DNA of 64,000 nt, from positions 1,757,748 through 1,821,747 of the forward strand of contig CAWDFL010000003.1 in assembly GCA_963801665.1 (NCBI GenBank), read 5' to 3'. Origin of the DNA: an uncultured delta proteobacterium. GTDB taxonomy: Bacteria > Desulfobacterota > Binatia > Binatales > Binataceae. The notes beneath the pieces are model-generated. The model saw nothing but the letters and a program-made list of their open reading frames with translations. It was not told the origin of the DNA and made no database searches. How positions within the stretch are numbered: position 1 is the first letter of the stretch; each line of letters starts with the position of its first letter. The position numbers and the translations under genes were made by a program. Positions 3,032-36,674 of this stretch are shown here, piece after piece.

Positions 3032-4351
3032 ATGCCGAATCAAGTGATGTTCATTCGCGGACCGCATGAACCAATCGCGATCGACCATGCCGAGGGCTCG
3101 TGGCTCTACACCACCGACGGCCGCAAGATCCTCGACGGCGGCGCCGGCGCGGTGGTTGTGAATATCGGCCAGGGACGCGAGGAGGTCGCCGAGATCGCCC
3201 GCCGGACGATCGCCAAGCTCGATTATATCGTGCCGGTCTGGACCTCGCCCGAGCGCGAGGCGCTGGTCGCGCGGCTCACGCGATGGACTCCGCCGGGGAT
3301 GGACCGCTTCTACTTCACCAGCGGCGGTTCCGAGGCGGTCGAGGCCGCGCTCAAGTTCGCGATCCTGCTGAACAAGGTGCGCGGCAAAGCCTCGAAGAAA
3401 AAGATCATCGGCAGGCAGTTCTCCTATCACGGCAACACGCTCGCCGCGCTTTCTGTCGGCGGCAGCGGACGCCGCGCCGACTACGAGCACGTGCTGATCG
3501 ATTGGCCGAAAATTCCGCCGTCATATTGCTACCGATGCCCGTGGGGCAAAACTTATCCCGCATGCGATCTCGAATGCGCATCCGCGCTCGAGAAAGCAAT
3601 CCTCGAAAACGGCGCCGACTCGATCGCGGCGTTTATCGCCGAGCCGATGATGGGTTCGTCGGGCGGCGTGGTCCCTCCGGTCAAGGAATACTGGCCGAAG
3701 CTGCGCGAGATCTGCGACAAGTACGACGTCCTGCTGATCGCCGACGAGGTGATGACAGGCTTCGGACGCACAGGCCGCCGCTTTGCGGTCGAGCACTGGG
3801 GCGTCACGCCCGATATTCTGGTGGGAGGCAAAGGACTCACCGGCGGCTACATGCCGATGGGGATGATCGCGGTGCGCGGCGAATTGGTCGAAGAGATCGA
3901 GCGCGCCAAAGCCGACTTCATGTTCTACACCTACAGCTCGCATCCGGTTGCGTGCGCGATCGCCGACGGCGTCCTCGCGATCATGGAGCGCGAGCATCTG
4001 GTCGAGCGCTCAGCCGAAATGGGCGCGCGCTTGGGAGCGCAGCTTCGCGAGGAGCTGTCGGGTCATCCGATGGTCGGCGATATTCGCGGCAGCGGACTTT
4101 TCTGGGGCGTCGAGCTGGTGCATGACAAGGCGACGCGCACGCCGTTCGCGCCGGAGAAGAAGGTTACCAATCGGCTGCTCGGCGCCGCGGTCCGGCGCGG
4201 ACTGTTCTTTTATCCGGCGTCCGGGATGGCGGGGAAGGCAGGCGGCGACGCGATGATGCTGACGCCGCCGTTTGTCATCAACGAGCAGGAAATGGAATTC
4301 CTGGTGCGCACCGCGCACGATGCGCTCGAAGAATTGAGGCCGCAGCTTTGA
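3032..4351 (+). CDS. Class III (omega-type) pyridoxal-phosphate aminotransferase
   Basis: Aspartate-aminotransferase-fold family III signature regions (LLIADEVMTGFGRTG, GGKGLTGGYMPMG); start placed at MPNQVMF (3032) downstream of the repeat element, earlier in-frame starts are possible. Confidence 0.8.
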   Translation: MPNQVMFIRGPHEPIAIDHAEGSWLYTTDGRKILDGGAGAVVVNIGQGREEVAEIARRTIAKLDYIVPVWTSPEREALVARLTRWTPPGMDRFYFTSGGSEAVEAALKFAILLNKVRGKASKKKIIGRQFSYHGNTLAALSVGGSGRRADYEHVLIDWPKIPPSYCYRCPWGKTYPACDLECASALEKAILENGADSIAAFIAEPMMGSSGGVVPPVKEYWPKLREICDKYDVLLIADEVMTGFGRTGRRFAVEHWGVTPDILVGGKGLTGGYMPMGMIAVRGELVEEIERAKADFMFYTYSSHPVACAIADGVLAIMEREHLVERSAEMGARLGAQLREELSGHPMVGDIRGSGLFWGVELVHDKATRTPFAPEKKVTNRLLGAAVRRGLFFYPASGMAGKAGGDAMMLTPPFVINEQEMEFLVRTAHDALEELRPQL

Positions 4352-8010: not shown

Positions 8011-8120
8011 GCTATCCCCGGATGCAGTTGCCTGATTTCTCCCCCATTGTCTGACATGGGGGAGGATTAAAGGAGGGGGTGCAGCGACTACGTTCCCGTA
8101 TCATAAGCAGACCGTTCGGT

Positions 8121-8225
8121 CGTCATTTCGAGCCCTGGGTGAGAAATCCCGGAGCGCCCATGCTCTACGCCAGCGCCACATGCAATGCCCCTCCGCCGGG
8201 ATTTCTCCCTGCGGTCGAAATGACG
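8121..8225. repeat. REP-like element of a second family (about 32-bp inverted arms, 43-nt loop)
   Basis: cgtcatttcgagccctgggtgagaaatcccgg ... ccgggatttctccctgcggtcgaaatgacg; related arms recur at 35545..35675. Confidence 0.5.
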
Positions 8226-8278
8226 ATCGAGGTTTCAGTGCCATCCGCATCCCACCGCTCAATTGAAAACTCGCGCGC

Positions 8279-8572
8279 TCACGGCATGTTGAAAGCGTCG
8301 CGTGTCTGCAAGTGATCGACCACAGAAACTATTCCGGTGACGCGCAATACCGTCCATCGGATATTCGCGCGGTCCCATTCGGTAGGCACCGTTCCCCACA
8401 GAATCAGCGTGTCTTCCTCGAGCTTGAACTGCACGCCCTTATAGCCCTCCGCGTCGAGCTCGCGCCTGAGCAATTGCAATTGCTCGGGCGTCGCGCCGCC
8501 GTCGAGATCCGGCATCGGGATCGGCATCGGACTCACGTCCGGCGCCAGGCGGCTCCGCGGGCGGCACCGCAA
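8279..8572 (-). CDS. BON-domain ORF overlapping the kinase 3-prime end; a separate small gene or a frameshifted C-terminal extension of the kinase
   Basis: LRRELDAEGYKGVQFKLEEDTLILWGTVPTEWDRANIRWTVLRVTGIVSVVDHLQ resembles a BON domain; the frame is +1 relative to the kinase tail; internal ATGs at 8527 and 8515. Confidence 0.4.
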   Translation of the reverse strand: MRCRPRSRLAPDVSPMPIPMPDLDGGATPEQLQLLRRELDAEGYKGVQFKLEEDTLILWGTVPTEWDRANIRWTVLRVTGIVSVVDHLQTRDAFNMP

Positions 8573-12916: not shown

Positions 12917-12936
12917 CCTCGCCACAAAAAGTCGCA

Positions 12937-13115
12937 GAGCAGCACCCTCACCCACGCGTCACGGCGATTGCTGAAAGGAGCAATCGCCGCGCCGCGTCGC
13001 CCTCTCCCGGAGGGAGAGGGTATTTCCCGATCGCGACGCGAGACATAGTGTCCGTACTGATTCCCTCTCCCTCCGGGAGAGGGTGGCGCGAAGCGGCGGG
13101 TGAGGGTGCGGCTCT
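12937..13115. repeat. Nested palindromic intergenic structure between convergent genes (probable bidirectional terminator / REP cluster)
   Basis: outer arms cagagcagcaccctcaccc / gggtgagggtgcggctctg; inner hairpins ggcgattgct-gaaagg-agcaatcgcc and two copies of ccctctccc-gga-gggagaggg. Confidence 0.55.
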
Positions 13116-13149
13116 GCTGCTGCTCGCGAACGCGTACCGCAGCGCCGCG

Positions 13150-29608: not shown

Positions 29609-31814
29609 GTGCACGGTTCAAAACGACGCGAAGCTTTGCTATACGCGACGGTTGTGAGTGACTCCACAGTATCGCAGATTATCGCGGACGCCTCGCGCGC
29701 GGGGCGTACCGCACTTTCGGAAATCGAAGCCAAACGGATAGTCGCCGGGCTCGGAATCAACGTCGCGATTCCCGTTGCCGCCGCTACCGCCGACGAGGCC
29801 GCCGCGATCGCGGCGCGGCGGGGTTTTCCGGCCGTGCTCAAGGTGCTCTCGCCGGACGTGAGCCACAAAAGCGAGGTCGGCGGCGTCGAGTTGGGTTTGA
29901 ATTCCGCCGACGAAGTGCGGGCGGCGTTTGCGCGGATCCAAAAGAATCTCGCCGCGAAGGCGCCCGGCGCAAAGTTCGAGGGCGTAGCGATCCAGCCGAT
30001 GGCGGCTGCGGGCGGCGTCGAGCTTCTCGCCGGAATCGTGCGCGACGATCGCTACGGCTCGACGATCATGGTCGGCCTCGGCGGAATTCTGGTCGAGGTG
30101 CTGAAAGACACCGCCGTAAGGCTCGCTCCGATAACCGGGCACGAGGCGCATACGATGCTCTCGGAGTTGCGCGGCGCCGCGCTACTCAGGGGAGTTCGCG
30201 GACGGCCTGCCGCCGATATCGAGGCGGTCGCCTCGATGCTGGTTGCGCTGTCGGAGTTCGCGGCGGCGCATCCTGAAGTTCGCGAGATGGATCTGAATCC
30301 CGTCGTCGCTTACGAACACGGCGTGACGGTGCTCGACGCGCGGGTGCTGCTCGGCGCGCCAGCGGCCGCGGCGATCGCGGATCCGCATCGCGCCGCGCGG
30401 CTCGAGAATCTCAAGCGTGCGTTCAATCCGCGCTCGGTTGTCGTGATCGGCGACAAGAAAGCCGGCGGCTACATGTGGCTGCGCGCGCTAGCGAATCTCA
30501 AGACCAAGCTTTATTCGGTTCAGATCGACCCGAACGAGATCGCGGGAATCGAAGCGATGGGGGTCGAGAATCACAAGAGCCTCTCTGAAATCAAGGAGCC
30601 GATCGACTATGCCGTCAGCGCCGTGCCCCGCCAGGTCGCTCCGCGAATCCTGCGCGACTGCGTCGCGAACAAGGTGGGTTCGATTGGATTTTTCACTTCG
30701 GGATTTTCCGAGACCAGCGAGGAGCTGGGAATCCGGCTCGAAGCCGAGTTGCGCGAGATCGCGCTCGGCTCCGAAATCGCGCTGGTTGGCCCCAACTGCA
30801 TGGGACTCGCGAATCCGTCGATCGGGATGCGCAATTATCCCGACGGCAAAGTCGGCGAGCCCGGCGACGTCTCGCTTCATCTCGCAGAGCGGCACGCACA
30901 CGATAAATTTCTGCGTGCAGGCGGCGGCGCACGGCGTCCGCGTCAACCTGGCGGCGTCGATCGGCAATGTGCTGGTGCTCGAAGCGGCCGACTATATCGA
31001 CCTGATGGCCGCCGATCCGTCCACCAAGGTTATCGGGATGTATATCGAAGGCGTGCGCGACGGCCGCCGCTTCTTCGAGAGCCTGCGCGCGGCGGCGGCA
31101 CGCCATCCGGTCGTGGTATGGAAGGGCGGCGCGACCGAGGCGGGTGCGCGCGCGACGTTTTCGCATACCGGGTCGCTGGCGACGCCGCGGGCGCTGTGGA
31201 GCGCGCTGGTCCGGCAGGCGGGCGCGGTCGAGGTCGGCTCGCTCGACGCGATGCTCGACGCGGTCGAGCTGCTCTCGCGCGGGCGCAAGGTCACGGGCCG
31301 TGCGATGGGACTGGTCGCGATGACGGGCGGGCAATCGGTAGTCGTGACGGACACGTTCGCCGCCGCTGGGCTCGAGATTCCCGCGCTGTCGGACGCGTCA
31401 TACGACGAGCTGAAAACATTCTTCAACGTGATCGGCGGCAGCTACCGCAATCCGCTCGATGCGGGCGGAACGATTGGCTCGGGAGTGCATCCGGGCGGAC
31501 TCGATCGAATCCTCGCGATTCTCGATCGCGATCCGGCGATCGATTCTATCGTGCTCGAAGTCGGCACCGGCTTTCGTGCCGCCCGGTGGGCCACGCATGA
31601 AGACGAAATCACGACGCTGCTCGACAAGCTCAGCGAGTTCGCCACGAAGTCGAGCAAGCCCTTCGCGCTGATACTGCATCCCGCGCACCTCGAGGCGCTC
31701 GTGGCGCGCGGCAAGGAACTCGCGCGCCAGCGCGGCCTGGTAGTCTTCGACAGCTTCGAGCGCGCCGCCGCCGCCTTCGCCACCGCATCGGCGTATTGGC
31801 AAGCGCATCGCTGA
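29609..31814 (+). pseudogene. NDP-forming acyl-CoA synthetase (ATP-grasp plus CoA-binding/ligase domains), split by a +1 frameshift near 30875 (authentic pseudogene or single-base sequencing error)
   Basis: Frame 1 (29609..30880) carries the ATP-grasp and start of the CoA-binding domain and ends ...GEPGDVS; frame +1 (ORF 30609..31814) continues FISQSGTHTINFCVQAAAHG... to the C-terminus; removing one c in tcgcttc joins GDVS-FISQSG. Confidence 0.6.
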
Positions 31815-31864
31815 GCGCTAACCGCCGCGTACTTCGTGTTGCACTGTTGCAGGCCTTTCGACGG

Positions 31865-31990
31865 CGAGCGCGTCGCGACGCGTCCCTACGAATAAATCTT
31901 CTTCGTAGGGGCGGCTCGGGAGCCGCCCGTCTTTCGCGCTGCCTGTCATCCTGAACCAGCGTCGAAGGATCTCCGCGAAGCGAGATCGAT
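31865..31990. repeat. Partial copy of the MITE-like repeat family seen at 35333..35860
   Basis: shares gacgcgtcgcgacgcgtc, cttcgtaggggcggctcgggagccgcccgtctttcgcg and ctgtcatcctgaac...cgaaggatctccgcgaagcga with the larger element. Confidence 0.45.
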
Positions 31991-32018
31991 CGGCTGTATT
32001 TCACTGGCCGGCTCTGCG

Positions 32019-33401
32019 CTACGCGGGCGGCACGACGACCGTCAGTGCGGCGTGAGTGGCGTCGCCGTCGACGATTGCTAGCCATTTCCCTTTCGGCGAC
32101 CAACTCAGCTCGGCGACGCCGCGCGCCTGTCCGTATGCGATTTGAAACGCGTTCTGCGCGTGCGTCGTGTAGGTGATGATCTTGCGCAGCGCGAGCGGAC
32201 TCGCCGGCTGGAAAGTCTGGATCGCCGCGTGATCGATCGCCGTCGAATAGTCCATCGTGCTCGACGCGAGCATTGGCGCCACCGTATTGAATCCGAGCTG
32301 CTTGATATTTATTTCCGGCTCGTCCGGATCAAAGATCGCGAGCTCCGCCTCTACCGGATCGAACGGACGAGTCTCGACCCTCGTGAAAGTCAGTTTCTGA
32401 TTTCCCAACGCCAGCACCGCGCCGCCGGCCGTGTATCCGGCCGCTCCGCTCGCTACGGCGATGGTTTTGTCCTGCCCGTTTGCGATGAAGTGCTCGAACA
32501 CCCCCGCGCTATTGCTCGCCGGAATCGGCTGCACGTACAGGAACGAGCTTTCGTCCACCGGGTTCCATCCGAGCACCCGTACCGGAGCGTTCGCACGCAG
32601 GCGTGTGCAGGTGGAATGACGCCGATCGATCAGCGCAGGCGGAACGCCGTCGCCTCCCGCGCTGACCGCGTAGATTCCGAGCGGGCTCCAGCTAAGCGCG
32701 CCTAGTGTGCACGGCAGCTTCATCGGTGCGACGGAAGCCGGTCCTGTCACCACCAGGATTTGGAGCCCCTCCGACGCCTTCGGCGCCGGCAGCGGCGGCA
32801 ATCCGGCGTCGGCGGGATTGGGAGGCGGAGGAGCGGGCTGATTGACGCTGGGCCGCAGCACGATTGCGATCGAGTCGCTGTTGAGCCAACTGAGGCTTGC
32901 GAGATCGTAAACTCCGTCGAAGCTGGCGACTGGATGGCCGGGTCCGGTCGCGATCAGATCGCGAATTACGATATCGAGACGATTCTGTCCGGCCGCGGCG
33001 ACGGCGAACGCCAGCGACATTCCGTTCGGACTTGGCGCGAAATCCATCAGACGACCCGGCTCAGCCGATCCCTCGCCAGTCTCGGCGCCCAGCACGCGCG
33101 AAGTCTGCCAGTCAGAGCCGCCGAATCCGAGAATCATGACGTTGCCGTTTGCCGTACCGACGACGCCGATCTCGTTGCCGTTCTCAAGCCATATCGGCGG
33201 ATATCCCGCCATCGGCGCAAATCCTTGCGGCAGATCAACCTTGGCCACCACGTGGATGCCGGCGGTGATGTTCAAGGTCGCCGTCATGTCGGTCTGAGGC
33301 ACCAGTTGTTTTTTGGGCGCCTCTTTCGTGAAGAGCGAGCATCCGCCAGCGGACACGAGTACTGCGCAGATCAGGAGGAGGATTAGGAAGGACCTGTTCA
33401 T
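32019..33401 (-). CDS. Lipoprotein, probable beta-propeller (TolB/WD40-like)
   Basis: MNRSFLILLLICAVLVSAGGCS signal peptide and lipobox; Pro-rich linker; repeated beta-strand-rich segments. The ORF-track extension upstream of 33401 is antisense to sppA and was discarded. Confidence 0.7.
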   Translation of the reverse strand: MNRSFLILLLICAVLVSAGGCSLFTKEAPKKQLVPQTDMTATLNITAGIHVVAKVDLPQGFAPMAGYPPIWLENGNEIGVVGTANGNVMILGFGGSDWQTSRVLGAETGEGSAEPGRLMDFAPSPNGMSLAFAVAAAGQNRLDIVIRDLIATGPGHPVASFDGVYDLASLSWLNSDSIAIVLRPSVNQPAPPPPNPADAGLPPLPAPKASEGLQILVVTGPASVAPMKLPCTLGALSWSPLGIYAVSAGGDGVPPALIDRRHSTCTRLRANAPVRVLGWNPVDESSFLYVQPIPASNSAGVFEHFIANGQDKTIAVASGAAGYTAGGAVLALGNQKLTFTRVETRPFDPVEAELAIFDPDEPEINIKQLGFNTVAPMLASSTMDYSTAIDHAAIQTFQPASPLALRKIITYTTHAQNAFQIAYGQARGVAELSWSPKGKWLAIVDGDATHAALTVVVPPA

Positions 33402-33455
33402 TGAAAAACGGTAGTCTAGATTGCGCGGTGCCAAAAGGCGACCGTATAGGCACTC

Positions 33456-35276
33456 ATGAAAAAATCTTTCCTGAAAGACTTGTGGATAAGCCGCGAGCTC
33501 CGGATCGCGGTCGTGGTCGCGATCCTCTGCGCAGCCGGACCTTTCGCCTGTGCCGCCGGTGACTGGAAAATTGGCGTGACGCTGATCGTCGCGGCGGGCG
33601 CGGTCGTGGTGGCGTTCTGGTTGATTGTCGTGCGGCCGGCAAAGCTGCCGCGCGACGCGGTCGTGATCCTCGAGCTCGGCGGCGCGATTCGCGAAGACTC
33701 GCGCCGCTCGCTGCGCCAGCAACTTATCGGCGGCGGCGCGCTGAGCCTGCGTCATCTGCGCTACGGGCTCGAAGCGCTCGCGACTGACACGTCGGTGCGC
33801 GCGGTTATCGTTCATATAACGGGAACCGAAACCGGACTGGCGACAGCGCATGAACTTCATCGTCTGATTCGCGCGGTCAGCAAAAGCGGCAAGCGGGTCG
33901 TCGCGCTTCTGACTGGAGACGCACCCTCGGTCCGCGACTATCTGATCGCCGCGGGCGCGAACGAGATCGTCGCGAATCCGGACGTGATGCTCACGATGCT
34001 GGGCGTGGCGATGGGAAATCCTTTCGTGAAGGGCGCGCTCGAAAAAGCAGGGGTGCGCGCGCAGACGCTGCAATGGAAAGAATACAAGGGCGCGGGTGAG
34101 ATGTTCACGCGCGACGCGATGTCGCCGGAGGTGCGCGAAAGCCTGGACGCGATTATCGGCGACTGGATGCAAATTATCGCAGGCGCGATTTCGGATTCGC
34201 GCCGAATCCCGATCGATCGCGCGCGCGAGCTGGTGAGCTCGGGGTTTATCGGAATGAAAGCGGCGCGTGCGGCGGGACTGGTCGATGGCGACGGCTATAT
34301 CGAAGATCTGCGCGCGGGTTTCGATCCCGACGGCAAGCAAAAATGCTTCGTCAAGTTCTCGCGCTATCTGCGCCACGCCACCTACGTGCGCGAGCGCGGT
34401 AATCGGCCGCAAATCGCGCTTATTGTCGGTGCGGGTCCGGTGATTTCCGGGCAAGCGCGGCCGGGCGGCGAGTACATCTCGGGTGAAACGACCTCCGAGC
34501 TGTTCGAGAAAGCCTCGCGCGAGGAATCGGTGCGCGCGATCGTGTTCCGCGTCAACTCTCCCGGCGGATCCGCGGTCGGCTCCGACATGGTGTGGCGCGC
34601 GGTGCGTGAGGCGCAGGGACGCGGCAAGCCGGTTATCGTGTCGATGGGCGACGTGGCGGGCTCGGGCGGCTACTACGTTGCGATGGGGGCGGACGCGATC
34701 GTGGCTGAGCCGGCCGCGATCACGGGTTCGATCGGAGTGGTGTTTGCGAAATTCGATCTGTCGGCGATGCTCGCGCGGCTCGGCGTCCGGTTCGATTACG
34801 CCAAGAGCGACGCCCGCAGCGACGCGATGTCCTTTGCGCGTCCGATGAGCGACGACGAGCTTGGACAGATCAACACGGCGATCGGAGAAGTGTATGGCAA
34901 CTTCACCGGCAAAGTCGCCGAGGGCCGCCGCCTGGACGCCGAACAGGCCGAGGCGCTGGCCAAGGGACGCGTGTGGAGCGGAGTTGCCGCCAAGCAGCGG
35001 GGTCTGGTTGATGAATTGGGCGGGATGGCGCGAGCGATCGAGATCGCGCGCGAGCGTGCGCATATCCCCAAGGATCAAGCGCATCAGGTCGTCAAGTACG
35101 CGCCCAGCGAAGGGTTCCTGTCGCTATGGGGATACTTCATGCCGGCAGCGGCAACCTCGTGGAGCATTGATCTGATCGCGAGCGCGCTAGGAGTCCCGTC
35201 CAGATGGGCGCCGGCGATGGCTACGCTCCTGATCCGCGGCGGCGCTCTGCTGATCTGCCCATGGCTCGAGCGGTAG
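33456..35276 (+). CDS. sppA: Signal peptide peptidase A (protease IV, S49 family, two-domain 67K type)
   Basis: Tandem S49 ClpP-fold domains, N-terminal TM anchor, Ser/Lys dyad regions (GGSAVGSD...). Confidence 0.85.
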   Translation: MKKSFLKDLWISRELRIAVVVAILCAAGPFACAAGDWKIGVTLIVAAGAVVVAFWLIVVRPAKLPRDAVVILELGGAIREDSRRSLRQQLIGGGALSLRHLRYGLEALATDTSVRAVIVHITGTETGLATAHELHRLIRAVSKSGKRVVALLTGDAPSVRDYLIAAGANEIVANPDVMLTMLGVAMGNPFVKGALEKAGVRAQTLQWKEYKGAGEMFTRDAMSPEVRESLDAIIGDWMQIIAGAISDSRRIPIDRARELVSSGFIGMKAARAAGLVDGDGYIEDLRAGFDPDGKQKCFVKFSRYLRHATYVRERGNRPQIALIVGAGPVISGQARPGGEYISGETTSELFEKASREESVRAIVFRVNSPGGSAVGSDMVWRAVREAQGRGKPVIVSMGDVAGSGGYYVAMGADAIVAEPAAITGSIGVVFAKFDLSAMLARLGVRFDYAKSDARSDAMSFARPMSDDELGQINTAIGEVYGNFTGKVAEGRRLDAEQAEALAKGRVWSGVAAKQRGLVDELGGMARAIEIARERAHIPKDQAHQVVKYAPSEGFLSLWGYFMPAAATSWSIDLIASALGVPSRWAPAMATLLIRGGALLICPWLER

Positions 35277-35332
35277 GTCCGTCGCCTCCTGTCTGATCCC
35301 TCGCTCTGAGGAGCGTGTCGATAAATGCTGAG

Positions 35333-35860
35333 TTCCTGTCCGTCATCCTGAACGAAGTGAAGGATCTCCGCGAAGCGATTAGTGCGCAAAGCCCGGATTG
35401 GTTGCACTAATCGCTTCGCGGAGATCCTTCGCCTGCGGCTCAGACCTTCACGAGTCCTTCGGACCCGCCACGCGGGACGAAAGTTAGCGTATAGCAACAG
35501 GCTGCGCGAAAGACGGGCGGCTCGCGAGCCGCCCCTACGAAGACTTGTGCGGCTGTCATTCCCGCGCGTGGCTGCCGCGCGAGGAATCCCGGGCGAAGGG
35601 TTGCTGCATGTGGTGTTGGCGTCGAGCATGGCCGCTTCGGGATTTCTCGCGCAGCGCTCGAAATGACACCCGGGGCGTGGCCGAGATACGATTCGCATCG
35701 CTCCACCGAGTTTCATGGCAGGATGACGGACAGGCTCGGCCGTGTTGATCAATGATGCGCGAAAGGCGAGCGGCTCCCACGAAGAAGATCCGATTCGGAT
35801 CGAGCGAATGAATTCTCGATTTTGTAGGACGCGTCGCGACGCGTGGGTCAGGATGCTGTT
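35333..35860. repeat. Dense cluster of nested inverted repeats (MITE/REP-like) with terminal inverted repeats cctgtccgtcatcctg ... caggatgacggacagg
   Basis: TIRs at 35337 and 35722; internal palindromes gaaggatctccgcgaagcgattagtgc/gcactaatcgcttcgcggagatccttc, gggcggctcgcgagccgccc, gtcattcccgcg.../...cgaaatgac; modules shared with 31865..31990 and 8121..8225. Confidence 0.55.
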
Positions 35861-35876
35861 CTGCGCGCTTCTTGGT

Positions 35877-36674
35877 TCAGCGCACGGCGGACTCTTCCTG
35901 CTGCATCGCGGCGTGAATCTTTCCGTTCGAGGCCACGATATTTGCGCCGCTGATATCGAGCGGGCTGCCGTCCATGTTCGCTACGCTGCCGCCCGCTTCC
36001 TCGATCAAGAGCGCACCCGCGGCGACATCCCACGCCTTGAGGCCGAACTCCCAGAATCCGTCCGTGCGTCCGCTGGCGACGTTGGCCAGATCGAGCGCGG
36101 CCGCGCCCGTGCGCCGCACGCCGTGCGAGCACATCATGAAGGCTTCCCAAAACGCGAGATAGAAGCGGCGGCGCTCGCGGCGGTCGTAGGGAAAGCCGGT
36201 CGCGAGCAACGCGGAGCCGATGACCGGAGTCGCGCTCACCCTGATTGGCTTGCCATTAAGCTTCGCGCCGCGTCCGCGTTGCGCGGTGAAACATTCCTTG
36301 TGCAGCGCGTCGTAAATAACGCCGAAGCGGGTTTCTCCGCGGCGTTGGTATGCGATCGACACGCAGAACTGCGGGAACGCATGCGCAAAGTTGGTGGTGC
36401 CGTCGAGCGGGTCGACAATCCATCGATGATCGCTCTGATGCGCGCTGGCGCCGCTTTCCTCGGCCAGGATCGCGTGAGTAGGAAACGCGCGATGGATCAG
36501 CTCGATCACCGCCGCTTCGGATTCTCGATCGGCCTCGGTGACCAGATCGATCGAGTTGGATTTGCGGTCGATCGTGATGCGCGAGAGGCGCTTCAGATGA
36601 ATCTTTCCGGCGGCGCGCGCGGCGCGCATCGCGACTTGCTCGATTTCGGTTGGCACGGACTGAAGATAGTTCAC
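35877..36674 (-). CDS. suhB: Inositol monophosphatase family protein (SuhB-like)
   Basis: IMPase motifs WIVDPLDGTTNF and metal-binding Asp/Glu positions. Confidence 0.85.
   Translation of the reverse strand: MNYLQSVPTEIEQVAMRAARAAGKIHLKRLSRITIDRKSNSIDLVTEADRESEAAVIELIHRAFPTHAILAEESGASAHQSDHRWIVDPLDGTTNFAHAFPQFCVSIAYQRRGETRFGVIYDALHKECFTAQRGRGAKLNGKPIRVSATPVIGSALLATGFPYDRRERRRFYLAFWEAFMMCSHGVRRTGAAALDLANVASGRTDGFWEFGLKAWDVAAGALLIEEAGGSVANMDGSPLDISGANIVASNGKIHAAMQQEESAVR

Follow-up and report, generated by a model that had tools for sequence, protein, structure and literature searches.

The DNA between the converging genes sppA and suhB of an uncultured Binataceae bacterium (contig CAWDFL010000003.1) is the subject of this analysis. 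The 64,000-nt stretch of the contig that was examined, hereafter the window, has a GC content of 63%, and the relatives of its SppA protein are metagenome-assembled genomes (MAGs) of Binataceae. The stop codons of the two genes are separated by a 600-nt spacer of inverted repeats, parts of which recur at a second site, 31815-32018, located between the 3′ ends of an acyl-CoA synthetase-like gene and a minus-strand gene. In the initial annotation, positions 35333-35860 were described as one miniature transposable element with inverted repeats (MITE) of about 500 bp or as a structured-RNA locus, and were not assigned to a known family. The spacer has probably built up from three or more layers, namely an element called A here, an insert Z of the IS110 type (IS, insertion sequence), and a pair of GTAG-tagged repetitive extragenic palindromes (REPs) with a short module E. 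The elements nested in this mosaic are all of known kinds, and are new members of them in a phylum where they have not been described; the parts fall among the GTAG- and CGTC-tagged REPs (PMC3733652) and the MITE-like elements of the IS110 family (PMC12288879).

The terminal-type inverted repeats and the nested inner palindromes reported in the initial annotation are present. The outermost is a 16-nt pair, complementary at 16 of 16 positions, formed by CCTGTCCGTCATCCTG (35335-35350) and CAGGATGACGGACAGG (35719-35734), and it encloses a perfect 27-nt inverted repeat (35359-35385 and 35404-35430), an 18-nt pair of 89% complementarity (35574-35591 and 35638-35655), an 11-nt pair (35550-35560 and 35662-35672) and the 20-nt palindrome GGGCGGCTCGCGAGCCGCCC at 35515-35534; another palindromic motif, ACGCGTCGCGACGCGT, is located at 35829-35844. 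Long inverted repeats exceed the chance level in the window, where nine of at least 16 nt lying within 600 nt were observed, against 1.3 in dinucleotide shuffles (maximum 4). The three modules said to recur at 31865-31990, GAAGGATCTCCGCGAAGCG, GGGCGGCTCGSGAGCCGCCC and GACGCGTCGCGACGCGT, were all found there: the first has three copies in the window against 0.11 expected, the second has six strand-wise matches at three sites (two of them exact) against 0.16 expected, and the third is a short motif which by itself is not above chance. The lack of coding capacity also held, in that no Pfam domain was found in the two overlapping internal open reading frames (ORFs) submitted (222 and 94 aa), out of several short ones, and the Pfam domains of the flanking genes agree with their naming as sppA, suhB and acyl-CoA synthetase.

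In contigs whose SppA is 89-90% identical the gene order is kept, and the sppA-suhB gap is only 25 nt (L002-L005) or 72 nt (L001; compared loci are cited by L numbers); by blastn, window positions 35277-35902 stand in place of 118-161 nt in these relatives. The short gap in the relatives indicates that spacer DNA was gained in the lineage of the window, and on these alignments the spacer repeats appear as a lineage-specific gain.

Element A, the first layer

As judged from the alignment of its copies, A is a 197-nt element made of 35291-35443 and 35722-35765, in which two inverted CGTC/TGTC-tagged REP units are arranged around a 27-bp hairpin. Copies were collected from species-representative genomes through the exact 19-mer GAAGGATCTCCGCGAAGCG of the hairpin arm, which occurs in more than 100 stretches, mostly of Binataceae MAGs; three of these MAGs hold at least 18, at least 14 and at least 13 loci with the 19-mer among the 100 loci listed. 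A is a repeat with many copies in Binataceae genomes, and 26 full copies, 190-215 nt in length, can be aligned end to end. From the left, the layout is a small hairpin, then CTGTCGAT-AAATGCCGAGTTCTTGTC-CGTCATCCTGAAC..GAAGGATCTCC-GCGAAGCGATTAGTGC and a variable loop of 18 nt, after which the right half reads GCACTAATCGCTTCGC-GGAGATCCTTC..GCTCAGGATGAC-..TTTGCGAGAAAATCGACAG and closes with another small hairpin. Small, non-coding, multi-copy and bounded by terminal inverted repeats (TIRs; CTGTCGAT.. and ..ATCGACAG, with the small hairpins flanking them), A is in these respects like a classical MITE. At other Binataceae loci the spacing of the arms is 53 nt in 17 of 18 exact doublets, as in the window.

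Homology between the window and other A copies begins at 35291, 15 nt past the sppA stop codon, so the repeated DNA starts near 35291 and not at 35333, as had been annotated. The 16-nt arms taken for TIRs are the tag regions of the two REP units of A, and the termini CTGTCGAT and ATCGACAG lie farther out. When 278 nt (35444-35721) are deleted, GGCTCAGGATGAC is restored, and the resulting 197-nt element is 82% identical over its full length to the A copy at L068; the annotated single MITE of about 500 bp is thereby resolved into a canonical A element and a separate IS110-type insert.

Some further observations concern A itself. Across the 26 copies the hairpin loop (35386-35403) keeps a constant length of 18 nt with a variable sequence (G.A...CC.....TGGTT), against nearly invariant 27-bp arms, a contrast that is partly a matter of ascertainment because an exact 19-mer of the arm served to collect the copies. 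The same 19-mer is found exactly in four viral or proviral IMG/VR contigs (L173-L176), and Acidimicrobiia MAGs contain it too. Among the loci, where inverted REP heads 0.7-3 kb apart were searched, there was no longer element that has A-type ends and could serve as a parent IS; L020 was considered as an autonomous A-type element and rejected, its enclosed gene encoding a TPR protein and no transposase.

Insert Z and its IS110-family relatives

The second layer, Z, interrupts the right REP unit of A at GGCTC-AG-GATGAC, with AG standing at both 35442-35443 and 35720-35721. Its interior consists of a GTAG REP (B) and a REP dimer (C) and holds no transposase, and it has no TIRs, there being no complementarity between its left and right ends. 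Copies of the same length class occur in L018 and L148 (278 and 281 nt). The composite corresponding to window positions 35335-35734 is also found in L018 and L055, both of one other Binataceae genome, and in metagenome contig L148.

The relatives of Z were recognised through a hairpin motif in its left end, CACGRGTCCNNNNGACCCRCCAC (35449-35472), which is present in 62 metagenome stretches. About half of these share the consensus TCAGAT.TTCACGGGTCCGTTGGACCCGCCAC.TTGCACGAAAGT and, 217-281 nt on, a common end ..CTTTCATG(G/C)CAG. About 30 transposase-less copies of 217-281 nt are thus seen in soil metagenomes, built of the left end, a CGTC-type REP dimer and the right end. Three of the contigs with the motif (L157, L117 and L159), and also L177, hold longer elements of 1559-1577 nt, which have the left end, about 290 nt of non-coding DNA, an ORF of 411 aa and the right end; they begin with AGAT..CACGGGTCCGTTGGACCCGCCAC..GAAAGT and finish with ..GACTTTCATGGC-AG, and the one in L157 is bounded at about 512-2076, being 1562 nt from AG to AG. 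The ORFs of L157 and L117 match DEDD_Tnp_IS110 (PF01548, 3.9e-23) and Transposase_20 (PF02371, 1.4e-18), that of L177 carries both domains by precomputed assignment, and that of L159 is homologous by sequence only. By their domains and ends these four are classed as autonomous insertion sequences of the IS110 family. Related transposases are numerous (7,484 at E <= 1e-60).

The insertion sites tie the short and the autonomous forms together. Three of the four autonomous copies are flanked by ..GGCTC-AG and AG-GATGAC and sit in a GTCATCCTGAGC REP unit at the exact position at which the window unit is interrupted, the left flank of L159 being identical to that of the window over 12 nt (TTCGCCTGCGGC); the fourth, L117, has ..CGCTTC-AG and AG-GATTAG. 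In a comparison of 12 copies, autonomous and short, each has AG at its two junctions, and independent copies lie either in ..G(G/C)CTC-AG-GATGAC REP units or in ..CCCCCTGGTC-AG-GGGGAGGG hairpins. Between window Z and the autonomous L157 element, 36 of 46 positions are identical at the left end and 15 of 20 at the right end. Homologous ends, the same position in the REP unit and the AG junctions lead to the conclusion that the insert is a non-autonomous IS110-type element. Moreover, Z lies in differing variants of the A arm (the window, L018, L148/L078, L154 and L029), which indicates repeated site-specific insertion and not the copying of one composite. A 3-nt target duplication, CAG, was considered and given up in favour of an AG core after the 12 copies had been compared. 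IS110 relatives of 58% identity (L180-L183) were set aside because their ends differ. In Binataceae the Z-type ends read AGACC.TCACGGGTCC.. on the left and ..TTTCATGGCAG on the right, and the edge of locus L029 (CAVXXK010000001.1, near position 2,376,001) may hold the start of an autonomous copy with a Z-type left end.

Elements of the IS110 family excise as circles at a core dinucleotide, and a bridge or seek RNA chooses a target with a matching core. A segment located about 152-169 nt inside the left end of each autonomous copy repeats the left target flank of that copy together with AG: GCGGCTCAG in L157, CGCTTCAG in L117, CCTGCGGCTCAG in L159 and CGGCTCAG in L177. The segment of L117 covaries with its different left flank, and the autonomous copies also carry ATGGCAG matching the right end (at +226..+232 in L157). 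These 5′ segments look like the guide segments of a bridge RNA.

In the mechanism proposed, a transposase-less IS110 derivative would have integrated site-specifically at the AG of GGCTC-AG-GATGAC in the right REP unit of A. Z would be excised and integrated by an IS110 (DEDD) recombinase given in trans by an autonomous copy, with the bridge-type RNA of that copy as guide, and through a circular intermediate joined at AG, the junction of which would read ..GAGTTTCATGGC-AG-ACCTTCACGAG... Since window Z is without a guide-like region, it would need recombinase and RNA both in trans. Repeats would pile up between converging 3′ ends, presumably since an insertion does no harm at such a place and every REP unit adds a landing site for an IS110-type element, so that nested mosaics resembling bacterial interspersed mosaic elements (BIMEs) would result. 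An effect at the RNA level, such as 3′-end hairpins or mRNA stabilisation, is possible.

REP units, repeat clusters and flanking genes

The CGTC-tagged REPs described earlier have an unpaired CGTC or TGTC tag (CCTC is allowed), a stem of 8-9 bp that starts with A-T and T-A, a loop of 4-5 nt and a short tail with the consensus CCA; they occur mostly as head-to-head dimers and have no dedicated transposase (PMC3733652). In the sampled DNA, 217 units of the form GTCAT-YYY...RRR-ATC(C/T)C were found, and in nearly all of them the stem is one of five covarying pyrimidine-triplet types (CCT, TCC, TTC, CCC and TCT). A TGTC or CGTC tag is carried by 188 units (87%), and the tail is CTC (118) or CCC (35), against the published CCA. 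The stems start with A-T/T-A and consist of 5 bp, a GA/GA mismatch and 3-6 bp closed by loops of 1-7 nt, being longer and more bulged than in the published families. In the window the tags are CGTC at 35341-35344 and TGTC at 35554-35557 and 31944-31947, and both A and C are head-to-head REP dimers with the tags outside. Related GTCATCCTGAGC units also form tandem arrays with a period of 34-36 nt in an Eggerthellaceae MAG (actinobacterial, gut). A literature search with the REP head sequence returned primer coincidences only, and no paper on repeats of Binatota was found; CGTC-tagged REPs of this phylum are without a report in the literature.

Element C is known in ten full copies, four of which lie inside Z-type elements. 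Another copy in the window coincides with 149 extra nt at 8105-8275 compared with L106/L107 (93% nucleotide identity), which shows that C is polymorphic. This copy was considered as an eroded IS110-type element and rejected: the similarity of its flanks is the extended inverted repeat of C itself, shared with L027, and six of the ten C copies have no IS110 ends nearby. Beside it, a Ser/Thr kinase gene ends at 8439 in the list of ORFs, whereas at the nucleotide level the similarity with the L106 gene (502 aa) extends as far as 8276; from this alignment the 3′ end of the kinase (8276-8439) is probably frameshifted. A module CACCCCCTCCTTTAATCCTCCCCC-loop-GGGGGAG recurs at unrelated loci (window 8039-8100, L018 and L106).

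The third layer is made of REPs of another superfamily, which is characterised by a terminal GTAG, a stem of 6-13 bp, a short loop and a multi-copy distribution (PMC3733652). B consists of GTAG and GGGCGGCTCG/CGAGCCGCCC, and D of GTAG, G and ACGCGTCG/CGACGCGT; since GTAG is followed in both by a GC-rich palindrome, they are GTAG-tagged REPs. Among the 4-mers that directly adjoin perfect hairpins in the sampled loci, GTAG is the most frequent (17 of 656 flanks), and B was found at eight other loci and D at five. The B/D tail-to-tail pairing is also seen in L084, L089 and L091. Positions 35757-35860, which had been included in the annotated MITE, are a separate REP cluster outside the TIR-bounded unit, and 31865-31990, which had been called a partial copy, is an independent cluster of a tail-to-tail GTAG-REP pair and a solo A-type REP unit, the TCAGGATGAC site of which carries no insert. 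The cargo of Z (a GTAG REP and the C dimer) and the neighbouring GTAG-REP pair are ordinary REPs. A REP-associated tyrosine transposase (RAYT, Y1 type) flanked by GTAG REPs was searched for by tblastn in about 870 kb with IS200 TnpA and an E. coli RAYT as queries, and no match was below E = 0.2; this is a weak negative, obtained in a partial sample. Two weak matches were rejected, being an FAD-type oxidoreductase and unrelated ORFs.

At 12934-13123, again in the gap of a converging gene pair, there is a further nested composite, where the outer inverted repeat, GCAGAGCAGCACCCTCACCC and GGGTGAGGGTGCGGCTCTGC, is module E, and an 11-bp hairpin and two CCCTCTCCC..GGGAGAGGG hairpins lie inside. Hairpins of the latter type also flank A elements and resemble the alternative IS110 target CCTCCCCCTGG..GGGGAGG.

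Several differences are seen in the genes around the two clusters. At the second site, 204 nt of repeats (31816-32019) replace 830-1100 nt in the relatives (L001 3494-4592; L003 3761-4592), and the replaced stretch holds a HEAT-repeat gene of 173-177 aa, which is a difference in gene content at a REP cluster. The acyl-CoA synthetase gene (29609-31814) is in two overlapping frames, 29609-31600 and 30609-31814, in place of the single 749-aa ORF of L003, a split that reflects either a frameshift or an error of sequencing. Beside module E, suhB has a 3′ end about 57 nt shorter than in the relatives, the protein being of 265 aa against their 273 aa. In L002, a 90% relative, the 9-nt REP head motif GTCATCCTG occurs within the 25 nt between sppA and suhB (3210-3234), either as a remnant or a seed, or by chance. 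The features are collected in Table 1.

Table 1. Repeats, elements and genes of the window, with the positions compared in other loci.
Feature	Position	Strand	Description
A, left terminal region	35291..35340	+	Small hairpin 35302-35315, terminus TGTCGAT 35316-35322, subterminal AAATGCTGAGTTCCTGTC; from the 26-copy alignment and the fold
A, left REP unit, CGTC-tagged	35341..35369	+	CGTC-ATCCT-GAACGAAGTGA-AGGAT-CTCC; holds most of the left "TIR"
A, central spacer hairpin	35359..35430	+	27-bp perfect arms, 18-nt variable loop 35386-35403
A, right REP unit, inner part	35420..35443	-	GGAGATCCTTCGCCTGCGGCTCAG; cut after AG 35442-35443
A, right REP unit, outer part, and decayed right terminus	35722..35765	-	GATGACGGACAGG; most of the right "TIR"
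Z, non-autonomous IS110-family element	35444..35721	+	278 nt counting one AG; at AG within the right REP unit of A
Z, left end (A-box-like)	35442..35486	+	AGACCTTCAC-GAGTCC-TTCG-GACCC-GCCACGCGGGACGAAAGTT; short palindrome near the end
Z, right end	35673..35721	+	..GAGTTTCATGGC-AG
GTAG REP B, cargo of Z	35505..35543	-	GTAG 35538-35535, GGGCGGCTCGCGAGCCGCCC and GTCTTTCGCGC
C, cargo of Z	35554..35668	.	115-nt hairpin; head-to-head dimer of two TGTC-tagged REP units
C, second window copy	8105..8250 (core 8118-8228)	.	Absent from the closest relative
Tail-to-tail GTAG-REP pair	35757..35845	+	Degenerate B 35757-35789, spacer with palindrome 35787-35801, REP D
REP D	35824-35845		GTAG 35824-35827 and ACGCGTCGCGACGCGT 35829-35844
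Module E	35839..35865	+	ACGCGTGGGTcAGGaTGCTGtTCTGCG; separated by 12 nt from the stop codon of suhB; found once more in the window and in 7 other loci
Tail-to-tail GTAG-REP heterodimer	31868..31928	.	D minus (31868-31889; CTAC 31886-31889), 15-nt spacer, B plus
REP B at the second site	31905-31928	+	GTAG 31905-31908, palindrome 31909-31928
Solo A-type REP unit	31944..31982	+	TGTC-ATCCT..AGGAT-CTCC and GCGAAGCG; truncated before the core hairpin
sppA	33456-35276		Peptidase_S49 (Pfam)
suhB	35877-36674	-	Inositol_P (Pfam)
Acyl-CoA synthetase, ADP-forming-like	29609-31814		ATP-grasp_5, CoA_binding and Succ_CoA_lig domains (Pfam)
suhB 3′-end comparison	35877-35905		Compared with L001 7924-8012 and L002 3235-3326
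Eggerthellaceae tandem REP arrays	L042 2853-2955; L054 4160-4304; L094 4992-5065		

Alternative explanations, known systems and significance

Three other explanations have to be weighed against the layered origin. That one MITE of about 400-500 bp with 16-bp TIRs was moved as a unit by a classical (DDE) transposase is suggested by the perfect 16/16 repeat, by the outer stem formed in the predicted fold, and by the composites in L018, L055 and L148, yet it is highly improbable and largely refuted already. Its arms are internal REP tags, and A copies reach about 45 nt farther out to the CTGTCGAT termini; the short form of 190-215 nt is far commoner than the long one (26 full copies against about five composites); removal of 278 nt restores a canonical A element; and the insert has autonomous relatives of its own and sits in different arm variants, with 35757-35860 unrelated to the unit. 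Of the annotated non-autonomous element, it stands that the DNA is non-coding, multi-copy and of mobile type and that the TIR-bounded stretch is a real element, but not that it forms one MITE of about 500 bp. The spacer might otherwise be a plain cluster of REPs and BIMEs that owes its spread to recombination or to a transposase of the RAYT type (IS200-like Y1), with the likeness to IS110 ends being incidental: GTAG- and CGTC-type units make up much of the region, and REP clusters are typically found between convergent genes (PMC3733652). This is very unlikely, since ends, length class, AG junctions and target are common to four transposase-bearing and about 30 short elements; moreover, no RAYT was seen in the sampled DNA, as far as that weak test goes, and CGTC REPs have no known dedicated transposase (PMC3733652).

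The least credible explanation, and one given hardly any weight, is that a structured non-coding RNA locus (a 3′-UTR stabiliser, a terminator or a small RNA), as the initial annotation had also proposed, is kept here for its fold. The predicted fold is very stable (z = -6.8 against shuffles), the position is just past two stop codons, and REPs elsewhere are thought to act as RNA hairpins (PMC3733652). However, a covariance-model scan with Rfam gave no gathering-score match across the window and only chance-level miRNA and internal ribosome entry site matches at E up to 10 over 31700-36000, and sites resembling intrinsic terminators are not in excess over shuffles. The repeats are missing at the same locus in close relatives, unrelated loci hold dozens of copies, oriented either way, and their loop sequence is free to vary, so that copy-number behaviour and presence or absence among relatives argue against an RNA locus.

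The layered origin, with Z as an IS110-type insert, is itself met by several observations that weigh against it. Neither A nor C shows at its ends a direct repeat that could be a target-site duplication, and a RAYT or IS200-type gene for either was not found in the same 870 kb, which is again a weak negative. The AG junction is a feature of 2 nt only (3 nt, CAG, in the window), and the sampled loci of Binataceae genomes did not yield an autonomous IS110 copy bearing the Binataceae-type left end. The candidate guide segments rest on sequence identity with no matching Rfam model, and no relevant match was obtained in the autonomous copies L157, L117 and L159 at E up to 10. The presence of REP cargo between IS110 ends is not accounted for by this explanation.

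The closest known system is ISPpu9 of Pseudomonas putida KT2440, a member of the IS110 group, which inserts at AG in REPs and BIMEs, has AG at both ends and a GCCC-N4-GGGC palindrome in its A box, and mobilises MITEPpu9 (PMC12288879). Z-type elements share with ISPpu9 and MITEPpu9 the AG-specific insertion into REPs or BIMEs, the AG ends, the lack of TIRs and the short palindrome near the left end (A box), and by analogy both MITEPpu9 and Z are transposase-less modules with IS-like ends, presumably mobilised in trans. The end sequences of Z are unrelated to those of ISPpu9, and the host belongs to Binatota and not to Gammaproteobacteria. The target of Z is a CGTC/TGTC-type REP unit, whereas that of ISPpu9 is a 35-bp GTAG-type REP of Pseudomonas; the cargo of Z is REP palindromes, whereas that of MITEPpu9 is a small RNA gene; and Z is known from sequence alone.

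The CGTC-tagged superfamily (Di Nocera et al. 2013, PMC3733652) includes dRS3 of Neisseria and RPE-4/-6 of Rickettsia, and the Binataceae units agree with it in the CGTC/TGTC tag, the A-T/T-A stem start, the C-rich tail and the head-to-head dimers, sometimes with structured spacers of 20-100 nt, and, as far as the sampled DNA goes, in having no dedicated transposase. They differ in longer stems with a tandem GA/GA mismatch, in loops of 1-7 nt and in CTC/CCC tails, and A has extra conserved termini (CTGTCGAT and a small hairpin) outside the REP dimer. B and D are built like GTAG REPs, REPINs and BIMEs (Nunvar 2010; Bertels & Rainey 2011; Di Nocera 2013), with a GC-rich palindrome of 8-10 bp and a loop of 0-2 nt after GTAG, and are found downstream of genes, singly or in tail-to-tail heterodimers, and in mosaics with other repeats; unlike in those systems, their stem sequences are lineage-specific and no RAYT was seen in the sampled DNA. 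A also resembles classical MITEs such as Correia elements and Coxiella QMITEs, being small, non-coding and multi-copy, with a long imperfect palindrome and TIRs. Coxiella QMITEs are targeted by IS1111, and A likewise serves as a landing pad for IS110/IS1111-type elements. Unlike in classical MITEs, the 278-nt Z has no inverted-repeat ends, and for A no target-site duplication is seen, nor was a parent IS with matching inverted repeats found among the loci.

A further idea, which is unlikely and offered tentatively, is that IS110 recombinases, by way of short carriers of REP dimers, are one missing vehicle of CGTC REPs, and that the same REPs are their RNA-guided landing sites. It is put forward because about 30 short copies carry REP dimers and because the 5′ segments of the autonomous copies covary with the REP target. 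If it is true, REP clusters would be self-seeding, each insertion bringing new targets.

In this way an unassigned MITE-like patch is resolved into a layered anatomy, and the uncultured soil phylum Binatota provides a natural case in which an IS110-type element of the bridge-RNA class and its miniature derivatives appear to home into REP palindromes. A new IS110 subfamily, abundant in soil metagenomes, is outlined with a defined target (GGCTC-AG-GATGAC), donor ends and candidate guide segments, and both GTAG and CGTC REPs are extended to Binataceae. For annotation, it is of practical importance that such spacers yield spurious ORFs and can break assemblies. For the biology of these genomes, the locus shows the build-up of nested repeat mosaics alongside local change in gene content, REPs being present where the relatives have a HEAT-repeat gene.

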